A program made the position numbers and the translations under genes. The notes under the pieces were generated by a model. It searched no databases, was not told the DNA's origin, and worked only from the letters and a program-made list of their open reading frames with translations. A DNA stretch of 64,000 bases, taken from positions 28,282-92,281 of IMG/VR virus record IMGVR_UViG_2974649431_000001; one strand, 5' to 3'. Origin of the DNA: a virus (taxonomy: Duplodnaviria > Heunggongvirae > Uroviricota > Caudoviricetes). Each line of letters begins with the position of its first letter. The stretch's first letter is position 1. Positions 51,895 through 60,174 of this stretch are shown piece by piece.

Positions 51895-52989
51895 ATGAGT
51901 TTGACTGCACGTTTGCTGGCTAAGAGCACTATCAAGATGACCTCTGTGTTCAGCGAATCGAAACTGTTCGACGGCATGGAGCAAGTGCCGACAGCAGTAC
52001 CCCTTCTGAACGTTGCCCTTGGGGGCAGCATCGATTCGGGGCTTCGCAGCGGGCTCGGCGTGATGGCCGGCCCCTCGAAGCACTTCAAGACGAGCTTCAC
52101 GCTACTCATGGTGGCGGCCTACCTGAAGAAGTACAAGGACGCGGTCTGTCTGTTCTACGACAGCGAGTTCGGCGCGCCCCAGAGCTACTTCAAGGCGTTC
52201 GGCATCGATCCCAACCGGGTCATCCACACGCCGATCAACAACATCGAAGAGCTGAAGTTCGACGTCATCCAACAGCTGGAGGAGATCAAGCGGAGCGACA
52301 AGGTGATCATCATCATCGACTCGATCGGCAACCTGGCCTCCAAGAAGGAAGTGGAAGACGCGAAGAACGAGAAGAGCGTCGCCGACATGACGCGCGCCAA
52401 GCAGCTGAAGTCGCTGTTCCGGATGGTCACGCCGTACCTTACGACGAAGGACATTCCGATGATCGCGATCAACCACACGTACCAGACCCAGGAGATGTAC
52501 TCCAAGGCGGTCGTGTCGGGCGGCACCGGCATCTACTACAGCGCCAACTGGATCTTCATCATCGGACGCTCCCAGGAGAAGGACGGTGACGAGCTGGAAG
52601 GCTACAAGTTCACGATCAACATCGAGAAGAGCCGGCTGGTGAAGGAGAAGAGCAAGCTGCCCATCACGGTGAGCTTCGAGAGCGGCATCGAGAAGTGGAG
52701 CGGCATGCTGGACCTCGCTGTCGAAATGGGCTACGTCGTGAAGCCCAAGAACGGCTGGTATACGCGCCCCTGCGTACCCGATGACAAGAGCTGGCGCGCT
52801 GCTGCAGCCGACTCCAACGACTTCTGGAAGCCGGTGTTTGCGAACAGCGACTTCGCAGAGGCCATCGCGAAGAAGTTCCAGCTGAGCGCTGCTGAGATGC
52901 TGGAGAAGGACGCCATCGAGGACGTGGAGACTCTGGATGACGACGGCGTCATCGAGACCACGCCGATCCCCGTCCCGGTAGACGACTAA
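51895..52989 (+). CDS. uvsX: RecA-like recombinase UvsX
   Basis: LN.ALGG, AGPSKHFKT, YDSEFG, DSIGNLASKKE, DMTRAK..KSLFR, GGTG..YSA, KSR.VKEKSK. Confidence 0.97.
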   Translation: MSLTARLLAKSTIKMTSVFSESKLFDGMEQVPTAVPLLNVALGGSIDSGLRSGLGVMAGPSKHFKTSFTLLMVAAYLKKYKDAVCLFYDSEFGAPQSYFKAFGIDPNRVIHTPINNIEELKFDVIQQLEEIKRSDKVIIIIDSIGNLASKKEVEDAKNEKSVADMTRAKQLKSLFRMVTPYLTTKDIPMIAINHTYQTQEMYSKAVVSGGTGIYYSANWIFIIGRSQEKDGDELEGYKFTINIEKSRLVKEKSKLPITVSFESGIEKWSGMLDLAVEMGYVVKPKNGWYTRPCVPDDKSWRAAAADSNDFWKPVFANSDFAEAIAKKFQLSAAEMLEKDAIEDVETLDDDGVIETTPIPVPVDD

Positions 52990-53028
52990 GAAAAATCGAG
53001 GGGCCCGGAAAAACGCTGGGCCCCGCGG

Positions 53029-53034
53029 TATAAT
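53029..53034 (+). promoter_or_regulatory. -10 element (TATAAT) preceded by a GC hairpin
   Basis: GGGGCCC(53000-53006)/GGGCCCC(53018-53024) stem followed by GGTATAAT, upstream of 53054 and the deazaguanine cluster. Confidence 0.45.
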
Positions 53035-53053
53035 CTAGTCTGAAAGGAAGAGC

Positions 53054-53338
53054 TTGCAATACGAAATCTTAGAGTTTGAAGAGAACACAGCAGACAAGAG
53101 CTTCAGCGCATCCGTCGAGTCTGGCGGTTTCGTCTACTGCTTCAACGACCTGCACATCGACGGTCCGAACGCCGAGGGGCGCGTGGACCTGTCCTACGAC
53201 CTCGTGGTCGCAGTGCTGCACACCGCCGACAATGGCTTCGACTGGCTGACGCCGGAGCAATGGCAACACCCCCATGACATCATCGCCGGCGACCTGCTGG
53301 ACGACATCCTCGGAGAAAAAGGAGAGGCTCTTGAGTAA
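53054..53338 (+). CDS. acidic hypothetical protein (position of T4 gp40)
   Basis: TTG start with AAAGGAAG RBS; directly downstream of uvsX. The gp40 similarity is positional only. Confidence 0.5.
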   Translation: MQYEILEFEENTADKSFSASVESGGFVYCFNDLHIDGPNAEGRVDLSYDLVVAVLHTADNGFDWLTPEQWQHPHDIIAGDLLDDILGEKGEALE

Positions 53339-53807
53339 GCGTTTCGTGTCCACCAAGGAGTGGAAAGAGCTGGGCCCCGTGGCCTACCGTCAGTGGCGCG
53401 CTGACAGCCACTGCAACCAGATTCACGGCTACGCGCTGAGCTTCTACTTCGAGTTCGAGAGCGACAGCCTCGACGCGCGGAACTGGGTCGTGGACTATGG
53501 CGGTCTCCGCCCGCTGAAGGACCTGCTGGAGGAATGGTTCGACCACACCCTGCTGGTCGCGCAGGACGACCCTCAACGCGAGCAACTGCTGGCGCTGGGC
53601 ACCGCGGGGCTCGCGAAGATCACCGAAGTCGAAGCAACGGGCTGTGAGGCCATCGCCGACTTCCTCTACCGCTTCATCAATACGGGCTTCCTGAAAGACC
53701 TGGGCTACGGTGACACCGTCTGGTGCTCCAAGGTCGGCGTGCGTGAGACGGGCAGCAACTATGCCTTCCGCCAGGGGCACCGCGAAGACAACGAGGGCCT
53801 GCTATGA
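53331..53807 (+). CDS. queD: 6-carboxy-5,6,7,8-tetrahydropterin synthase QueD
   Basis: TTG at 53331 with GGAGAGG RBS. SHCNQIHGY (CxxxHG), WVVDYGGL..K, FDHTLL, G.E.IA, VRET..N.A. Confidence 0.88.
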   Translation: MSKRFVSTKEWKELGPVAYRQWRADSHCNQIHGYALSFYFEFESDSLDARNWVVDYGGLRPLKDLLEEWFDHTLLVAQDDPQREQLLALGTAGLAKITEVEATGCEAIADFLYRFINTGFLKDLGYGDTVWCSKVGVRETGSNYAFRQGHREDNEGLL

Positions 53808-53947
53808 TGGAAGGGTGGGACGACGTCCACAAGGGCGAAGGCTGGGGTCTCGGCGACCCCCACAAGTCGCACAAGCGGCTGATGAAGTGGCTGTCCATCA
53901 GCCCCTTCCTGCTGGTCGCACTGATGTGCATCGCAGCTCTGGTATGA
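53804..53947 (+). CDS. 47-aa peptide with a C-terminal TM helix
   Basis: Manual translation MMEGWDDVHKGEGWGLGDPHKSHKRLMKWLSISPFLLVALMCIAALV; ATGA overlap with the queD stop. Confidence 0.45.
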   Translation: MMEGWDDVHKGEGWGLGDPHKSHKRLMKWLSISPFLLVALMCIAALV

Positions 53948-54027
53948 AGGCATGGCTCGCAGCGACAGCAGTGCTCTTGATTGCGCTGCTGTCTGCTGCT
54001 GTCTGGGTTGCATTCCCGGCTCACTAA
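53944..54027 (+). CDS. 27-aa single-TM peptide
   Basis: MKAWLAATAVLLIALLSAAVWVAFPAH; ATGA overlap with the preceding peptide. Confidence 0.4.
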   Translation: MKAWLAATAVLLIALLSAAVWVAFPAH

Positions 54028-54100
54028 GTACCGTTTTGGTTATGCCTTGACACCAACGGGTTGCACACAAGGGCGACCACTGAACTAGGATAGGAACACT

Positions 54101-54769
54101 ATGAAAGAAAAGACCAACCCATCTCTGGGCCTGGAAATCCGCGATCACCTTCTGAGCCTCGGCGTAGAGACGCCTATTGCCAGCGTTGCACTCGCTGCAA
54201 ATGACGACGCAAAGATCGCAGTCATCGAAGAGCATATGCACCGCATCATGGAGACCCTGGGTCTCGACATGGGCGATGACAGCCTCTATGACACGCCGAA
54301 GCGCGTCGCCAAGATGTTCGTGAACGAGCTCTACTGGGGCTTGAAGACCGAGAACTTCCCCAAGTGCACGACCGTCGAGAACAAGATGGGTTACGACGAG
54401 ATGGTTCTGGAAAAGAACATCAAGGTGATGAGCGACTGCGAGCATCACCTGCGCACCATCGTGGGGAAAGCTCACGTGGCGTACATCCCCAAGGAAAAGG
54501 TGCTGGGGCTGTCCAAGCTGAACCGCGTGGTGGAATACTTCTCCCGCCGGCCTCAGATCCAGGAGCGCCTCGCCGAACAGATCTACCACGCGCTGTCGTA
54601 CATCCTGGGCACGCCTGACGTGGCCGTGGTCATCGACGCCGAACACTTCTGCGTGAAGCAACGCGGCATCGAGGACGTGGGTAGCTCCACAGTGACGAGC
54701 AAGCTGGGCGGATGCTTCCGCGAAGGCACGGTGCGCGCTGAGTTCCTGAGCCTCATCAAGGGCGTCTAA
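54101..54769 (+). CDS. folE: GTP cyclohydrolase I FolE
   Basis: D.SL.DTPKRVAKM, S.CEHH, G.AHVAYIP...V.GLSKL.R.V..FSRRPQ.QERL, A.H.C...RG. Confidence 0.97.
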   Translation: MKEKTNPSLGLEIRDHLLSLGVETPIASVALAANDDAKIAVIEEHMHRIMETLGLDMGDDSLYDTPKRVAKMFVNELYWGLKTENFPKCTTVENKMGYDEMVLEKNIKVMSDCEHHLRTIVGKAHVAYIPKEKVLGLSKLNRVVEYFSRRPQIQERLAEQIYHALSYILGTPDVAVVIDAEHFCVKQRGIEDVGSSTVTSKLGGCFREGTVRAEFLSLIKGV

Positions 54770-55254
54770 TGGAACGGGCTTACGCCCAAGGATGCAGGGA
54801 CTCAACCCCTGCATTTTTTATTGGCGATGAAGTTGAGCACACCACCCACCACGGTATGCGGACACTGTTTTGCGATGGGGGCCTCGGGGTCGATGAGGTG
54901 ATCGCGAAGGCTGTGGAGACCAGCGTGGGTCACGTCTACCTGAACTCCAACCACAGCTTCCTCGCATACGGGGAGGACAAGATCTCCCAGCTGCTGATGC
55001 GCGGCTACGCTGTCACCTACGAGTACGGCAACCAAGGCGGCTTGCACCCCGAACCCTTCCCCATTGAGCACCCCAACTTGGTTCACTTGCGCAGCGTGGT
55101 GGTAACGAAGGTGCGTCGAGGTGTGGGCCACTACCTGAAGATCGACGACCTCGGTTTTCAAAACACCAACCCGGGCGTCTGGACTTTCAAGCCCGGCAAC
55201 TACGCAGGATTCACCCCCTGGTCTGCATACCTGAAGGACGATATCGTCGAATGA
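54769..55254 (+). CDS. unknown protein within the deazaguanine cluster
   Basis: TAATG-coupled to folE and ATGA-coupled to the TGT-like gene; FFIGDEVEHT..G.RTLF, YLNSNHSF, LKIDD.GF..TNPGVW. Confidence 0.75.
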   Translation: MERAYAQGCRDSTPAFFIGDEVEHTTHHGMRTLFCDGGLGVDEVIAKAVETSVGHVYLNSNHSFLAYGEDKISQLLMRGYAVTYEYGNQGGLHPEPFPIEHPNLVHLRSVVVTKVRRGVGHYLKIDDLGFQNTNPGVWTFKPGNYAGFTPWSAYLKDDIVE

Positions 55255-56525
55255 CCACCAAGTACGAATACGTGATGTCCGGCATGAACTATGCCATGTC
55301 CAAGCGGGGCGTGTTCACGGATGCTTACAATGAGAAGTGCCGGGAAATGTTCCGGCAGCTGAACGGGGCGATCCCCAACCACAGCCAGGCGATCCTCTTC
55401 AACGGCCTCCAGGAGCGCAGCCTGGGGAAGCACCTCTACAACATCTACGGCACGGAGTCGAAATACTACGTGGACTCAGGTGGACTGCAGATGGTGACGC
55501 TGGGCATGGAGGCGACCGACGAGACGCGCGAGGACATCTACAAGACGCAGGGTGAGTTCGGCGACTTCGCGATGAGCTTCGACGAGATTCCCGTGAAGCT
55601 GCTCAGCGACCGCAGCACCTTCCATGACACCAAGTCGCGTGTCGTTGACATGGAAAACTTCGACGAGTTCGCGGTGGCGAGTGGCAAGAACTTGCGCGCG
55701 CAGATCGAGAGCTTCAAACGCCAGAAGACCAAGACGAAGCCCTTCATGATCGTGCAGGGCACCTCCCCCGAGACCTACCAGCGCTGGACCGACTTGGTGC
55801 TGGGCGAAGTGGACCCCAGCGACCACTGCCGCATCGGCGGGCTGTCCGTGGGGGCAGCTAGCTTAGGGCAAGGGCAGATGGAGGACTTTACGCGCGCATT
55901 CCTCGCAGCAACGCTTGAGATGCCGGAGCACATCAAAGCGCACATCCACCTGTTGGGTGTGGGCTCGTTGAAGCGTCTTGCACCGATCGTTGCTCTTAAG
56001 CACGCGGGGCACTTCGAGAACACGCTGATCAGCTATGACTCGACGACGCACACATCCAGCCTCAGCCTGGGGAGCTTCCAGAAGGACCACCGGCTGATGG
56101 GCTTCAAGGTGAAGAGCGGCAACGTGCGAGGCTTCGACGCTGTGGTCGATGAGATCTGTGCGTATGCCAAGAAGGTGTTCAAGATGGACCCCGACCCGGA
56201 ATTCATCCGCTTCGTCTACCTGCACTCGCGCGCGGGCTACTACGAGCGCTGGGGACATGACCGAGAAGAAGAGTACCAGGACGCGAAATTCCTGTCGCTG
56301 TACGCTAACATACTCAACTTCTGCAAGTCGCTGCGCATCATGGACTGGGGTCCCGAAGGTCTGATGGAAGTCTTCCCGGAGAAGACGGGCCCGTACCTGA
56401 CGTTCTGCAAGGTGCAGGATCGCAAGGACTTCGACCAGTGGCAGCGCCTCAACAGCGCCATGCTGGTCAGCAAGGCCATCGCGACCAGCGACAGCGTCAC
56501 AACCCTCGACGAGCTTTTTGAATGA
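55251..56525 (+). CDS. guanine transglycosylase, TGT/DpdA superfamily
   Basis: All six TGT motifs occur in order: VDSGGLQ, SFDEIP, IVQG, GGLSVG, HLLGVG, SYDS. There is no CxCxxC Zn site. The neighbours are folE/queD/queE. Confidence 0.85.
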   Translation: MTTKYEYVMSGMNYAMSKRGVFTDAYNEKCREMFRQLNGAIPNHSQAILFNGLQERSLGKHLYNIYGTESKYYVDSGGLQMVTLGMEATDETREDIYKTQGEFGDFAMSFDEIPVKLLSDRSTFHDTKSRVVDMENFDEFAVASGKNLRAQIESFKRQKTKTKPFMIVQGTSPETYQRWTDLVLGEVDPSDHCRIGGLSVGAASLGQGQMEDFTRAFLAATLEMPEHIKAHIHLLGVGSLKRLAPIVALKHAGHFENTLISYDSTTHTSSLSLGSFQKDHRLMGFKVKSGNVRGFDAVVDEICAYAKKVFKMDPDPEFIRFVYLHSRAGYYERWGHDREEEYQDAKFLSLYANILNFCKSLRIMDWGPEGLMEVFPEKTGPYLTFCKVQDRKDFDQWQRLNSAMLVSKAIATSDSVTTLDELFE

Positions 56526-57550
56526 ACCAACGCACCATCCACCTCTTCGGGCTGGAGCCCATCGAGACCCGCTACACCAAGGAGTGGGCAACACACCTCC
56601 CGGCCGTTCTCAGCAAACACTTCTGGGTCTGCGACTACCAAGGCGACGTCCTGGAAAGTTCGGTGGGTACCTCGGACTTCCTGAACTGGACCTCGACGAA
56701 CTACTTCAAGAGCAGCCAGCTCATGGGTTTCGCGCTTGCTCTGAATGCTGGGCGAGTCAACGATGGAGACATCGTGCTGTTCACCGACTTCTGGAACCCC
56801 GCCGTCATCCAGGTGAAGTACATGCTGGGCATGGCCGGCCTGGACGTGAAGGTAGCAGGCATCGCGCACGCCGGCGCATACGATCCCTGGGACCGCCTCG
56901 CAGAGAAGCTGGGGCACAATGAATGGGTGTACAAGGCAGAGGCCGGCATGTTCGAGTGCTATGACCGGATCTTCTTCGCGACAGATTTCCACCGGGACCT
57001 CTACGCACAGACGCATGGGCACAGCCCGGCGACCTTCGTTGCGGGCTTCCCCATGGAATATATCCGCAACGAGATCGATGAGTCCCTGCCGTTCAAGCGG
57101 AACAAGATTGTCTTCGCACAGCGCAATGCACCGGAGAAGCAGCCCCACCTCTTCCACGAACTCGCTGCATGGGCAAAGGCCGAAGGGCTGGACTATGAGT
57201 TCGTCGACGTCGGTGCAATGGGCCTGAAGAAGCCGGAGTACCATCAGCACCTCCGGGAAGCCAAGCTGGTTGTGAGCTTCGCGCGCCAAGAGACCCTGGG
57301 CATCACGCCCTTCGAAGCGCTTGCGAGGGGATGTGACATCTTGGTGCCCGACCGGCTGAGCTACTCTGAGATGTACAGCCCCATTTTCAAGTACCCCAGC
57401 GGTAACGACCTGGAGCGGGTCAAGGAGCGCCTCGTGGACCGCATTACCAATTTTGAGCCGCGCCAAAACGCCATCGAGGGCGAGTACAATATGCTCGCAG
57501 CGAGCTACTTTTCGTCGGCTCACATGATCGAAAGTTTGAAGGACCTCTGA
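56522..57550 (+). CDS. GT-B fold glycosyltransferase (GT4-like)
   Basis: C-terminal domain with QRNAPEKQP and QETLGITPFE (Ex7E), then ALARGC..LVPDRLSY.EM. Confidence 0.8.
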   Translation: MNQRTIHLFGLEPIETRYTKEWATHLPAVLSKHFWVCDYQGDVLESSVGTSDFLNWTSTNYFKSSQLMGFALALNAGRVNDGDIVLFTDFWNPAVIQVKYMLGMAGLDVKVAGIAHAGAYDPWDRLAEKLGHNEWVYKAEAGMFECYDRIFFATDFHRDLYAQTHGHSPATFVAGFPMEYIRNEIDESLPFKRNKIVFAQRNAPEKQPHLFHELAAWAKAEGLDYEFVDVGAMGLKKPEYHQHLREAKLVVSFARQETLGITPFEALARGCDILVPDRLSYSEMYSPIFKYPSGNDLERVKERLVDRITNFEPRQNAIEGEYNMLAASYFSSAHMIESLKDL

Positions 57551-57934
57551 ATGAAAAAGATCTTCGTCACCTTCCAGAAGGCAGGCATCCACAAATACCC
57601 CGCAGCAGCACACGACCCCAAGCTGAGCGACGTGAGCTACCTGGGCAGCCCCCATCGGCACCTCTTCAAGTTCCGGGTCACCATCCAGGTGTTCCATGAC
57701 GACCGAGAGATCGAGTTCCACCAGTTCCTCAACTACGTGGAAGGCATGTACCACACGGGTACGCTGAGCCTCGATCACCGCTCCTGCGAAATGATCGCCG
57801 ATGAGCTGGCGTTCACGCTGCGCAAACGCTACCCCAACCGCTGGATGCAAATCGAGGTGAGCGAAGACGGCGAATGCGGGGCTGTCATCGACTACGAACC
57901 CGCTACGGCGTGGGACGGCGAGGAGGGAGTCTAA
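57551..57934 (+). CDS. QueD-like T-fold protein, DpdL-like (putative CDG decarboxylase)
   Basis: YLGSPHRHLF matches the LxxxHRHxF signature I recall for DpdL-type proteins; also DREIEF, SCEMIA and V.EDGE.GA. It lacks the QueD catalytic CxxxHG motif. Confidence 0.7.
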   Translation: MKKIFVTFQKAGIHKYPAAAHDPKLSDVSYLGSPHRHLFKFRVTIQVFHDDREIEFHQFLNYVEGMYHTGTLSLDHRSCEMIADELAFTLRKRYPNRWMQIEVSEDGECGAVIDYEPATAWDGEEGV

Positions 57935-57937
57935 CCA

Positions 57938-58747
57938 ATGTTCGGTACCAATGAAGTGGTCGGCAAGAAGTGGTTCAAGGAGGCGGGCGACCGCCTTTTC
58001 GTCACCTCGATTTTCTACAGCATCCAGGGCGAGGGCCCCTTCATGGGGGCGCCTGCGGTCTTCGTGCGCCTTGGGAAGTGCAACCTGGACTGCAGCTTCT
58101 GTGACGCGCTGTTCGACCAGGGCGACTGGATGACACCCGAGCAGGTCGACTCCAAGATCGATGAAGTGCTGGCAGCCAAGGGCATCGATCAGTCGACCGG
58201 CATGCTGCTGGTGATCACCGGCGGCGAGCCTCTGCTACAAGATGCGGCTGTCCCGTGGATGCATGACCGGATGAGCCGAGGCAACCTCGTCCAGATCGAG
58301 ACCAATGGCATCCTCTCCATGGATGAGCTGGATCCCGGCATTCATGTGGTGTGCAGTCCCAAAATCAGCGAGAAGAGCGGGCGCTACCTGAAGCCGAGTG
58401 AGGCAAACATGGGGCGCATCGACTACTTCAAGTTCCTGGTGAGTGCTGACCCTGCATCCCCCTACCACCAGGTGCCGGATTGGGCGCCTCGCACGCTCCG
58501 CACGTTCGTGAGCCCCATCAACGTGTACCTGGATGCGCCCCGTGAGATGAAAATCTTCCTGGTGCGAGACGCCCAGACCAAGGGCATCGACTTCCGCAGC
58601 AGCAAGGGCGAAGTCGCGAGCTTCTGGGAGGAGGGCACGTTCGACATAGCCCAGAACCGTTTGAATCATGAGTATGCGGGCGAGCTCGCAGTGACGGAGG
58701 GCTTCCGGGTAAGCCTGCAGATGCACAACCTGCTGAGCATGGCTTGA
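57938..58747 (+). CDS. queE: 7-carboxy-7-deazaguanine synthase QueE (radical SAM)
   Basis: FYSIQGEG, VFVRL..CNLDCSFCD (CxxxCxxC), VITGGEP, QIETNG, VCSPK, SLQMH. Confidence 0.93.
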   Translation: MFGTNEVVGKKWFKEAGDRLFVTSIFYSIQGEGPFMGAPAVFVRLGKCNLDCSFCDALFDQGDWMTPEQVDSKIDEVLAAKGIDQSTGMLLVITGGEPLLQDAAVPWMHDRMSRGNLVQIETNGILSMDELDPGIHVVCSPKISEKSGRYLKPSEANMGRIDYFKFLVSADPASPYHQVPDWAPRTLRTFVSPINVYLDAPREMKIFLVRDAQTKGIDFRSSKGEVASFWEEGTFDIAQNRLNHEYAGELAVTEGFRVSLQMHNLLSMA

Positions 58748-58755
58748 GGTAACGT

Positions 58756-60174
58756 TTGTCGGAAATCACTAATGAAAGACTGATTTTATCATCCCTGGTT
58801 CAGAACGAAGACTTCGGGCGGCGCGTGAGCGCCTACCTGAAGCGCGACTATTTCGCAAGCGCGGAAGAAGCGACTGTTCTGGGCTACGTGCAAGACTTCG
58901 TTCAGAAGTACGCTGCTCTGCCGAACAAGGCAGATTTGAAGGTCATCGCGACCAACGACGCGGAGATCAGCGAAGCTACGACAGAGGTAGTCCACGAGGT
59001 CATCGAGGACATCTTCGACATTGAACCCAGCCGGAACACAGAGTTCCTCGTGAAGACCGCCGACGAGTTCTGCAAGAGCCGGGCGATGTTCAACGCGATC
59101 CAAGAGGCGATCGAGATCTACAAGGGCGAGTCCAAGAAGACCGTGCATGCCATCGCGGACATCATGCGCGACGCCATGGCGGTCAGCTTCGACCCCAACG
59201 TGGGACACGAGTACCTTGCGGACGCTGAGGCGCGCTGGGACTACTACGAGAACCCGGCAAGCAAGATCCCCTTCGACCTCAAGGCGTTCAACGAGAACAC
59301 CAACGGGGGTGTGGAGCGCAAGACGTTGAACCTGCTAATCGCGGGCATCAACGTGGGCAAGACCATGAGCCTCGTGAGTCTCGCTGCGATGTACATGCGG
59401 ATGGGTTACAACGTGCTCTACTGCTCCAACGAAATGGCGGAGCAGAAGATCATGAACCGCGTGGACGCCAACATGCTTGGCACGTCCATGAACGAGATCC
59501 GTGAGCTGGGCAAAGAGGCCTTCATGGGGCGCATTGAGAAGATGCGCCAGAAGACCTACGGTCGGCTCTTCTGTAAGGCATGGCCAACTGGTACGGCAAC
59601 GGCGAACCACTTCCGGCATGCGGTCAATGAGATTCGCATCAAGAAGCGCGTACAGATCGACATCCTCATCGTGGACTACCTGCAGATCACGACGACGGGT
59701 AACATCAAGCTGGCCGACAACAGTTACCAGAAGTACAAGGCAGTCGCAGAAGAGATTCGCGCGCTGTGCGTTGAAGAGGACATGGTAGGGTGGACAGCCG
59801 CACAGTTCAACCGAGGAGGGCTGGACAACAGCGACCCCGGCATGGGCGAAGTGGGCGAGTCAACGGGCATCCCGGCAACGGTGGACGGTATGTGGGCTTT
59901 GATCCGAACGGAGGAGCTCGACGAGGTTGGCCAACTGCTGGTCAGTGAGTTGAAGTCGCGCTACGGAGACAAGTCCAAGCCGAAGTTCGCGGTGGGGGTA
60001 AATATCAACACCCAGAAGCTGTTCGATGTGAACGACGAAGACCGGGGCAAGTTCATCACGGAGCGCAAGCCCAAGGCGAACGCGAAGCCCAAGGAGGCCC
60101 CTCCCAAGGCTACGGTCCAGTCGACGAACAAAACGATCGGCAAGTTCAAGAACCTGAAAGTGACAGATGACTGA
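58756..60174 (+). CDS. gp41: replicative helicase gp41
   Basis: V.FD..VGH.Y, IPF....FN..T.GG..RKTLN..AG.NVGKT, VDYL, IAEE.R, TA.Q.NR, ES.G.PAT.D, K.RY. Confidence 0.95.
   Translation: MSEITNERLILSSLVQNEDFGRRVSAYLKRDYFASAEEATVLGYVQDFVQKYAALPNKADLKVIATNDAEISEATTEVVHEVIEDIFDIEPSRNTEFLVKTADEFCKSRAMFNAIQEAIEIYKGESKKTVHAIADIMRDAMAVSFDPNVGHEYLADAEARWDYYENPASKIPFDLKAFNENTNGGVERKTLNLLIAGINVGKTMSLVSLAAMYMRMGYNVLYCSNEMAEQKIMNRVDANMLGTSMNEIRELGKEAFMGRIEKMRQKTYGRLFCKAWPTGTATANHFRHAVNEIRIKKRVQIDILIVDYLQITTTGNIKLADNSYQKYKAVAEEIRALCVEEDMVGWTAAQFNRGGLDNSDPGMGEVGESTGIPATVDGMWALIRTEELDEVGQLLVSELKSRYGDKSKPKFAVGVNINTQKLFDVNDEDRGKFITERKPKANAKPKEAPPKATVQSTNKTIGKFKNLKVTDD

Follow-up and report, generated by a model that had tools for sequence, protein, structure and literature searches.

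A glycosyltransferase linked to the DpdL-type deazaguanine cassette of Acidovorax citrulli phage ACP17, and a possible sugar-decorated purine in phage DNA

Introduction

Deazaguanine DNA modifications are a main phage route for evading restriction and CRISPR. To our knowledge, eight deazaguanine derivatives have been found in DNA so far, none of them bearing a sugar. A gene island in the 64,000-nt stretch of DNA analysed here (IMG/VR record IMGVR_UViG_2974649431_000001, positions 28282-92281; hereafter the window) therefore raises the question of why a glycosyltransferase (GT) gene is embedded among genes for deazaguanine synthesis and insertion, and what its product would decorate. The record, which comprises 156,281 bp with 56-61% G+C across the island region, is treated here as Acidovorax citrulli phage ACP17 (KY979132), a cultured T4-like myovirus with a published genome of 156,281 bp and 58.7% G+C.

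ACP17 has been named as a DpdL phage, and its base cassette of DpdA, DpdL, FolE, QueD and QueE, with no QueC, is already published (PMC10516641). DpdL is a QueD-like protein with LxxxHRHxF in place of CxxxHGH and was proposed to decarboxylate 7-carboxy-7-deazaguanine (CDG), yielding 7-deazaguanine (DG) (Cui, Hutinet et al., NAR 2023, PMC10516641). With the base cassette known, only the GT and an open reading frame (ORF) for a protein of 161 amino acids (aa) are unaccounted for. Expression of ACP17 dpdA and dpdL in E. coli, with the GT left out, yielded no 2'-deoxy-7-deazaguanosine (dDG), and the authors considered that other unknown enzymes may be needed (PMC10516641); this reconstitution omitted exactly the two unexplained genes. 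That publication makes no mention of a glycosyltransferase, and neither a glycosylated deazaguanine in DNA nor a GT layer was found in the literature searched, with most subscription journals outside its coverage.

Results

The GT is functionally tied to the deazaguanine cassette and is not a passenger. IMG/VR contains at least 595 loci with a relative of the GT. A census by hidden Markov models (HMMs), covering the best 80 of these and nine other loci (n = 89), found DpdL in 86 of 89 and a DpdA-type gene in 83 (ACP17 type, 9; 514-aa type, 74). The same census counted FolE in 69 loci, QueE in 54-58 and the 161-aa protein in 61, and the genes are usually arranged as DpdA-like gene, 161-aa gene, DpdL, GT, FolE and QueE. 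Starting from DpdL, which is encoded by at least 592 loci, we counted those with at least 3 kb on both flanks (n = 47); in 44 of them the GT was present, the median gap being 436 bp. A set of 50,697 phage records gave 21 matches each for GT and DpdL with 16 records in common (the PA5oct group, Phosso, X1, BUDD, BCSR5 and BUCT-ZZ01), and in these the two genes are adjacent. An earlier note made from the letters of the window alone had described the GT as tightly coupled to the island, to be given up if GT and transglycosylase or DpdL never co-occurred in related genomes; they do so in hundreds of loci.

In many marine relatives, an epimerase gene and a cytidylyltransferase-like gene lie beside the module. 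The phosphoribosyltransferase (PRTase), HIT, epimerase, cytidylyltransferase-like and 251-aa genes of many marine relatives are missing in ACP17, which would therefore draw on a nucleotide-sugar of its host. With seven genes and neither sugar-nucleotide nor PRTase genes, ACP17 has the smallest version of the system. Most marine loci (65/90 and 58/80) encode a protein of 242-251 aa directly upstream of the 514-aa DpdA-like gene (e.g. L007:3849-4577); it has no Pfam match, is a further member of the module and does not occur in ACP17.

Judging from its modelled fold and its conserved residues, the GT appears capable of catalysis. An alignment-based AlphaFold model shows a GT-B fold with two Rossmann domains (Table 1), and the best Foldseek matches are BshA, GlgM, MshA, glycogen synthase, PimB and AmsD (E ~2e-11 to 1e-11, TM-score 0.65-0.71), which are GT4-type retaining enzymes. 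Across 59 family members, E257-x7-E265 (the EX7E motif) and the pair R201 and K206 do not vary, and so the enzyme appears to be active. Its Pfam scores stay below the gathering thresholds (Glycos_transf_1, 21.1 vs 26.4 bits; PF13524, 21.4 vs 25; PF20706, 18.1 vs 26), and some relatives carry PF00534. The fold matches are generic, with a tRNA-queuosine mannosyltransferase at rank 28 and a tetrahydrobiopterin glucosyltransferase at rank 49, and no specific relative stands out. PADLOC returned no match for the GT, for DpdA or for the proteins of the bacterial islands described below.

For DpdL, the GT is an optional add-on to the core and is not required. In seven cultured phages (phiST, Roos, RHph_I1_18, Ahp1_CNU-2021, Bakedbeans, D479 and MA9V-3), DpdL occurs with FolE and other genes of the CDG pathway close by, and a GT of the ACP17 family is absent from the whole record, while PA5oct, X1 and BUCT-ZZ01 matched as positive controls of the same searches. 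The 161-aa protein is missing in the first five GT-less phages tested. The GT-less proteins are nested among GT-linked ones in the DpdL tree, the starred branches of which force at least three changes.

Some DpdL genes of these phages have unusual structures or neighbours. The DpdL frame of Chryseobacterium phage MA9V-3 (L095:7428-8306) has an N-terminal part matching HNH homing endonucleases of many phages; tblastn with the whole ORF was dominated by this part, and the DpdL part alone was used. In Vibrio phage D479 (L094:7262-7939) the FolE region and DpdL are separated by a homing endonuclease gene. The deazaguanine cassette seems to be a target of mobile endonucleases. In gp176 of Vibrio phage Bakedbeans (L093:9212-10363), an ORF of 383 aa, DpdL makes up the C-terminal third and is accompanied by a second, partial DpdL-like stretch; gp176 may be a bimodular T-fold protein.

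The GT also occurs in bacteria. A scan of one genome per prokaryotic species yielded 45 loci, some of which are phage-like contigs binned into metagenome-assembled genomes. About 31 of the 45 are alphaproteobacterial (e.g. Magnetospirillum, Methylobacterium, Devosia, Pelagibacterium, Sulfitobacter, Shimia and Ochrobactrum), with contigs of megabase length in some cases. In these ~31 genomes, the GT lies directly beside the 514-aa DpdA-like gene, with DpdL present in only ~14. Because the bacterial islands pair GT and DpdA-like gene without DpdL, the most constant partner of the GT is the DNA transglycosylase rather than DpdL, and the GT would work with a DNA transglycosylase plus whatever deazapurine is available. 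A membrane protein is encoded just upstream of the GT in 23 of the ~31 genomes; 9 of 12 tested match Vut_1 (PF02592) with a best E of 3e-6, below the cutoff. Vut_1 is the family of YhhQ, a preQ0 transporter (PMC6884629). ABC-3C and AAA_15 proteins are encoded near the bacterial GT loci, which may therefore represent a chromosomal island rather than a prophage; the locus looks like a cellular DNA-marking island. The bacterial loci (L186-L220) include those of Shimia ponticola (L188:5649-12315), Magnetospirillum aberrantis (L198) and Devosia naphthalenivorans (L202). Frequent neighbours are a gene for a conserved 586-aa protein on the downstream side and a MASE1/HATPase sensor-like gene on the upstream side.

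By its sequence features, the island of ACP17 is a member of the DpdL-type deazaguanine systems, with all testable defining features present. The signature of DpdL reads L-GSP-HRH-L-F at residues 31-39. Among 46 sequences, H35, H37 and F39 are invariant and R36 is found in at least 90%; H14, H49, S78-C79-E80 and E105-D106 are likewise invariant. DpdL of phiST fits the HMM of the ACP17-type proteins at 2.8e-26 and has the S-C-E motif in common with them. The gene that the earlier note had called a DpdL-like T-fold gene is thus a real DpdL.

The pathway genes are all present with intact motifs. By homology, FolE, the QueD-like protein and QueE would convert GTP to CDG, from which DpdL, following the proposal of Cui et al. 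for its putative activity, would strip the carboxyl group to give DG. The QueD-like gene starts with TTG at 53331, 6 nt after AGGAG, and its product has the motif S-H-C-x3-H-G-Y, compared with C-x3-H-G-H in bacterial QueD; the tyrosine is common to 10/10 aligned phage homologues. The third zinc-ligand position of the phage QueD-like family thus differs from that of canonical QueD. No QueC (PF06508) was found in the 156,281-bp genome, with control matches in 13/14 genomes, and no QueF (PF14489) in the whole genome, with a positive control search. The pathway can therefore not reach preQ0. This HMM search over the rest of the genome had been proposed in the earlier note, and its outcome agrees with the claims made there that QueC is lacking and that the visible pathway ends at CDG or DG. 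A gene of the ThyA/hydroxymethylase family (PF00303) was likewise not detected in the whole genome (control matches in 10/14 genomes), so that hydroxymethylpyrimidine, the classical acceptor of phage DNA glycosyltransferases, is not made.

DpdA of ACP17 appears from its sequence to be nearest to the DpdA2 subfamily: in residues 6-255 it shares 34-36% identity with the loci of Vibrio phages nt-1 and VH7D, whose DpdA2 enzymes were shown to insert preQ0/preQ1 into DNA (PMC10516641). Motifs of tRNA-guanine transglycosylase (TGT) are invariant in nine sequences (D75-S-G-G-L-Q, F110-D111-E112 and Y-D263-S264), and TIGR00449 aligns to residues 52-247 with 29 bits vs a cutoff of 47.6. The family thus stays below the curated TGT thresholds, with no Pfam match (PF01702) in nine members and the NCBIfam tgt model below cutoff, and neither the protein nor its profile matched any PDB sequence. 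It has been noted that phage DpdA2 needs HHpred to reach TGT (PMC6884629). The 514-aa DpdA-like family aligns to DpdA by hhalign (probability 95%, E 2.5e-8). Homologues of the ACP17 type occur without DpdL or GT in Pseudomonas phage pf16 and in Stenotrophomonas T4-like phages.

The 161-aa protein is read from its model as a small beta/alpha half-barrel that travels with the GT and is dispensable, X1 and BUCT-ZZ01 having the GT and lacking this protein. A search of 1.8 billion representative proteins gave 265 relatives (E<=1e-3); the protein has no PHROG or NCBIfam match, and its family no Pfam match in 61 members. Foldseek found no PDB match for the model and only its own family in the AlphaFold database, and there was no match to PDB sequences. 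In an exhaustive structural alignment, three QueE proteins were among the top five (Z 6.4, 6.0 and 5.9), values in the noise range, as Z < 8 is common by chance. A shape search of the ESM Atlas weakly indicated QueE clusters (TM-score 0.56), the comparison with QueE by hhalign was not significant (probability 16%), and conserved cysteines are lacking. A weak indication of GH-type TIM barrels came from language-model features (0.87). Forms of the family with 260-290 aa were considered as fusions, which was ruled out for DpdL and all other cassette proteins.

The layout of the island is summarised in Table 1, with family calls from Pfam, PHROGs and NCBIfam. All genes are co-directional and mostly overlap, and a family-B DNA polymerase gene and uvsX precede them; the gene list, the start/stop overlaps and the placement between UvsX and a gp41-type (DnaB-type) helicase were found as the earlier note had given them. 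From FolE to QueE, the junctions are, in order, TAATG, ATGA, ATGA, 0 nt and 3 nt.

Table 1. Genes of the ACP17 deazaguanine island and its flanks (positions in the window)
Feature	Position	Strand	Support
UvsX recombinase, upstream flank, outside the system	51895..52989	+	PF21134 T4_UVSX_C 5.8e-20; PF00154 RecA 7e-11
QueD-like 6-carboxytetrahydropterin (CPH4) synthase	53331..53807	+	PF01242 3e-13; phrog_2389 9e-42; TIGR03367 5e-8 (below cutoff)
47-aa ORF, hydrophobic C-terminus	53804..53947	+	open frame, ATGA overlap with QueD stop
27-aa hydrophobic ORF	53944..54027	+	ATGA overlap with 47-aa ORF; alternative frame 53952-54050
FolE, GTP cyclohydrolase I	54101..54769	+	PF01227 3.6e-60; phrog_2197 1e-74
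161-aa accessory protein, no family	54769..55254	+	open frame; AlphaFold2 (AF2) predicted local distance difference test (pLDDT) 91
DpdA-type DNA-guanine transglycosylase, 424 aa (predicted)	55251..56525	+	phrog_10773 1e-168; TIGR00449 4.6e-7 (below cutoff)
GT-B/GT4-type glycosyltransferase (GT), 342 aa (predicted)	56522..57550	+	AF2 pLDDT 94.7; Foldseek; EX7E
DpdL, QueD-like T-fold, 127 aa	57551..57934	+	phrog_17812 6e-53; LxxxHRHxF
QueE, radical S-adenosylmethionine CDG synthase	57938..58747	+	phrog_2076 6e-54; PF04055 2.7e-7; TIGR04349 4e-22 (below cutoff)
gp41-type replicative helicase, downstream flank	58756..60174	+	PF03796 DnaB_C 1.7e-13

Between QueD and FolE, the earlier note had listed two micro-peptides. 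Both frames are open at that place, whereas their status as genes has no support beyond this openness: the 47-aa ORF has no match in Pfam or PHROGs and the 27-aa ORF none in Pfam, and both are missing in the nearest relative (L005), in which UvsX runs straight to FolE. The small ORFs (53804-54050) have hydrophobic, membrane-helix-like tails and occupy most of the gap, and a TTGACA hexamer lies at ~54046 upstream of FolE. A very acidic 94-aa ORF (53054-53338; isoelectric point (pI) 4.05) overlaps the QueD start by 8 nt and has no family match. No Rfam family was found in 52900-58900, where promoter-like and terminator-like sites are not more frequent than in shuffled sequences, and megablast of the island against phage records gave no close DNA relative. 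In two GT-bearing relatives (L009:1060-4908 and L010:1-5045, the latter from PA5oct), an inserted gene, annotated in PA5oct as a Hef-like homing endonuclease, divides the family-B DNA polymerase gene upstream of the cassette into two ORFs.

Discussion

We see an even chance that the DNA of ACP17 carries a sugar-decorated 7-deazaguanine, produced by a QueC-less DpdL-type system that is extended by the GT. In this scheme, the GT4 enzyme would move a sugar from a host nucleotide-sugar onto the deazaguanine, with the 161-aa protein as an optional helper of this step, and the DpdA2-like transglycosylase would swap guanine in the phage DNA for the deazapurine. The substrate of the GT could be either the free base, ahead of its insertion, or the base already in DNA; the virion DNA would then hold glycosyl-7-deazaguanine instead of plain dDG. 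As DG has no hydroxyl group, N2, O6 or the electron-rich C7/C8 freed by decarboxylation may be considered, speculatively, as attachment atoms. We are undecided between the two levels of action: the acidic GT, its structural neighbours of small-molecule type and its tight adjacency to DpdL favour the free base, whereas the constant pairing of GT and DpdA-like gene even without DpdL favours a step coupled to insertion. Pockets of the TGT family tolerate large 7-substituents such as queuine, so that the insertion of a pre-glycosylated base is conceivable. A broader reading, which we consider possible but somewhat short of an even bet, is that ACP17 and hundreds of related phages swap guanine for glycosylated 7-deazaguanine and that GT and DpdA-like protein form a portable module of two enzymes, which in the chromosomal islands of Alphaproteobacteria is fed by a YhhQ-like importer and marks the cell's own DNA.

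Several observations weigh against a glycosylated base in ACP17. The acceptor atom on DG, lacking a hydroxyl group, would be without precedent in DNA. The only chemically characterised member of the DpdL-type systems is the GT-less phiST with plain dDG, and the GT-bearing members are known from their genes. The dpdA and dpdL genes of phiST, where no GT is involved, likewise failed in E. coli (PMC10516641), and the negative reconstitution with the ACP17 genes is therefore weak support. The profiles behind the GT-side and the DpdL-side samples both came from linked loci, which makes the co-occurrence percentages upper estimates. With a median pI of 5.1 the GT family is acidic, and the structures closest to it take small molecules as acceptors, so that the GT may act at either level. 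Finally, the modification may be sparse, since the DpdA2 enzymes tested so far modify less than ~0.1% of G.

The strongest competitor, which we nevertheless regard as rather unlikely, is that the end product is plain dDG or 2'-deoxy-7-carboxy-7-deazaguanosine (dCDG) and that GT and 161-aa protein serve the pathway otherwise, as partners of DpdA/DpdL, in the glycosylation of a free intermediate for storage or detoxification, or on queuosine-type bases in tRNA. phiST speaks for it: like ACP17, this phage makes CDG without QueC and combines a DpdL of the same family (HRH, SCE and EDGEN motifs) with a DNA transglycosylase, but its genome encodes neither GT nor 161-aa protein and its DNA reaches 100% dDG by mass spectrometry (PMC10516641). 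The DpdA3 of phiST (259 aa) has no detectable similarity to DpdA of ACP17. The missing acceptor hydroxyl, the acidity of the GT and the small-molecule acceptors of its closest solved structures speak for this explanation as well, as does the existence of a GT4 enzyme that glycosylates tRNA queuosine (QTMAN/GTDC1; Q9VXN0; PMC11755703). This eukaryotic GT-B enzyme also places a sugar on a 7-deazaguanine nucleoside in nucleic acid and matches the GT fold (E 1.8e-10, TM-score 0.60), but its acceptor is the cyclopentenediol hydroxyl of queuosine in tRNA, and it is no closer to the GT than many generic GT4 enzymes. A plain end product would leave unexplained why GT and DpdA-like gene are paired in bacteria without DpdL and why sugar-nucleotide genes have joined the marine phage module, and the invariant catalytic residues argue for a real sugar transfer.

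The remaining explanations detach the GT from deazaguanine. It is improbable that the GT provides an independent second layer on another DNA base, the deoxyribose or the phosphate and shares no more than its regulation with the deazaguanine genes: more than one modification system can occur in the same phage, Mom-like enzymes have been reported for PA5oct as well, and the GT sits in a replication operon, but a hydroxymethylase-family gene that would supply a pyrimidine acceptor is lacking, and the linkage to DpdL/DpdA is specific across T4-like phages, jumbo phages and bacterial islands with differing gene surroundings. Very improbable is a glycosylated pterin made by FolE, T-fold protein and GT, comparable to the biopterin glucoside of cyanobacteria and unrelated to DNA. 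FolE often directly adjoins the GT and the tetrahydrobiopterin glucosyltransferase (9v0l) is among the structural matches, yet the latter is one among hundreds of generic GT4 matches, the catalytic cysteine of 6-pyruvoyltetrahydropterin synthase (PTPS)/QueD is missing from DpdL (PMC10516641; alignment here), QueE and a DpdA-type gene accompany the set, and the bacterial islands consist of GT and DpdA-like gene without FolE. We attach the least probability to a passenger GT with no link to the cassette, for instance in the remodelling of the host surface. Phage genomes do hold many GT4 genes for changes of surface polysaccharides, but 86/89 and 44/47 co-occurrences at sub-kilobase distance, the start/stop overlaps on both sides of the GT in ACP17 (an ATGA and a 0-nt junction) and its recurrence beside DpdA-like genes in bacteria are at odds with this.

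A sugar-decorated deazaguanine in ACP17 would resemble known systems only in part. The nearest characterised transglycosylases (N-terminal 60%) are those of nt-1 and VH7D (Hutinet 2019, PMC6884629; Cui 2023), which are T4-like as well; in contrast to ACP17, these phages have QueC and ArcS, QueF or DpdM, make dPreQ0, dG+, dPreQ1 or mdPreQ1, and have neither DpdL nor GT. With the glucosylation of T4, the system proposed for ACP17 would share a phage GT-B enzyme that acts on a non-canonical base as a second protection layer in a T4-like phage, while the base in T4 is hydroxymethylcytosine and not a purine, ACP17 has no hydroxymethylase, and the T4 enzymes AGT and BGT are not in the top 50 structural matches of the GT4-type enzyme. 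The Pseudomonas jumbo phage PA5oct encodes the same GT (38% identity), DpdL, QueE and 161-aa protein, with the differences that its GT-DpdL-QueE block adjoins a 540-aa DpdA-like gene of the 514/540-aa type and that its 161-aa gene lies ~27 kb away. Its DNA resists enzymes with G in their sites (END nuclease preprint, PMC12191111).

To the published base cassette, the window adds a minimal cultured example, a reciprocal census of GT and DpdL, GT-less contrasts including phiST, and bacterial islands that combine GT, DpdA-like gene and YhhQ-like gene. Since ACP17 is available in culture and its version of the system is the smallest, the idea lends itself to direct testing. If it is true, its DNA would contain the first sugar-bearing purine known in any DNA, which would also account for the failed reconstitution with ACP17 dpdA and dpdL. 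It would further create new targets and evasion routes for defences that sense modified G, such as END nucleases and Dag glycosylases. The near-constant presence of the GT in the DpdL-type gene set leads us to expect a new class of hypermodified purines, which would be widespread in marine and soil phages.

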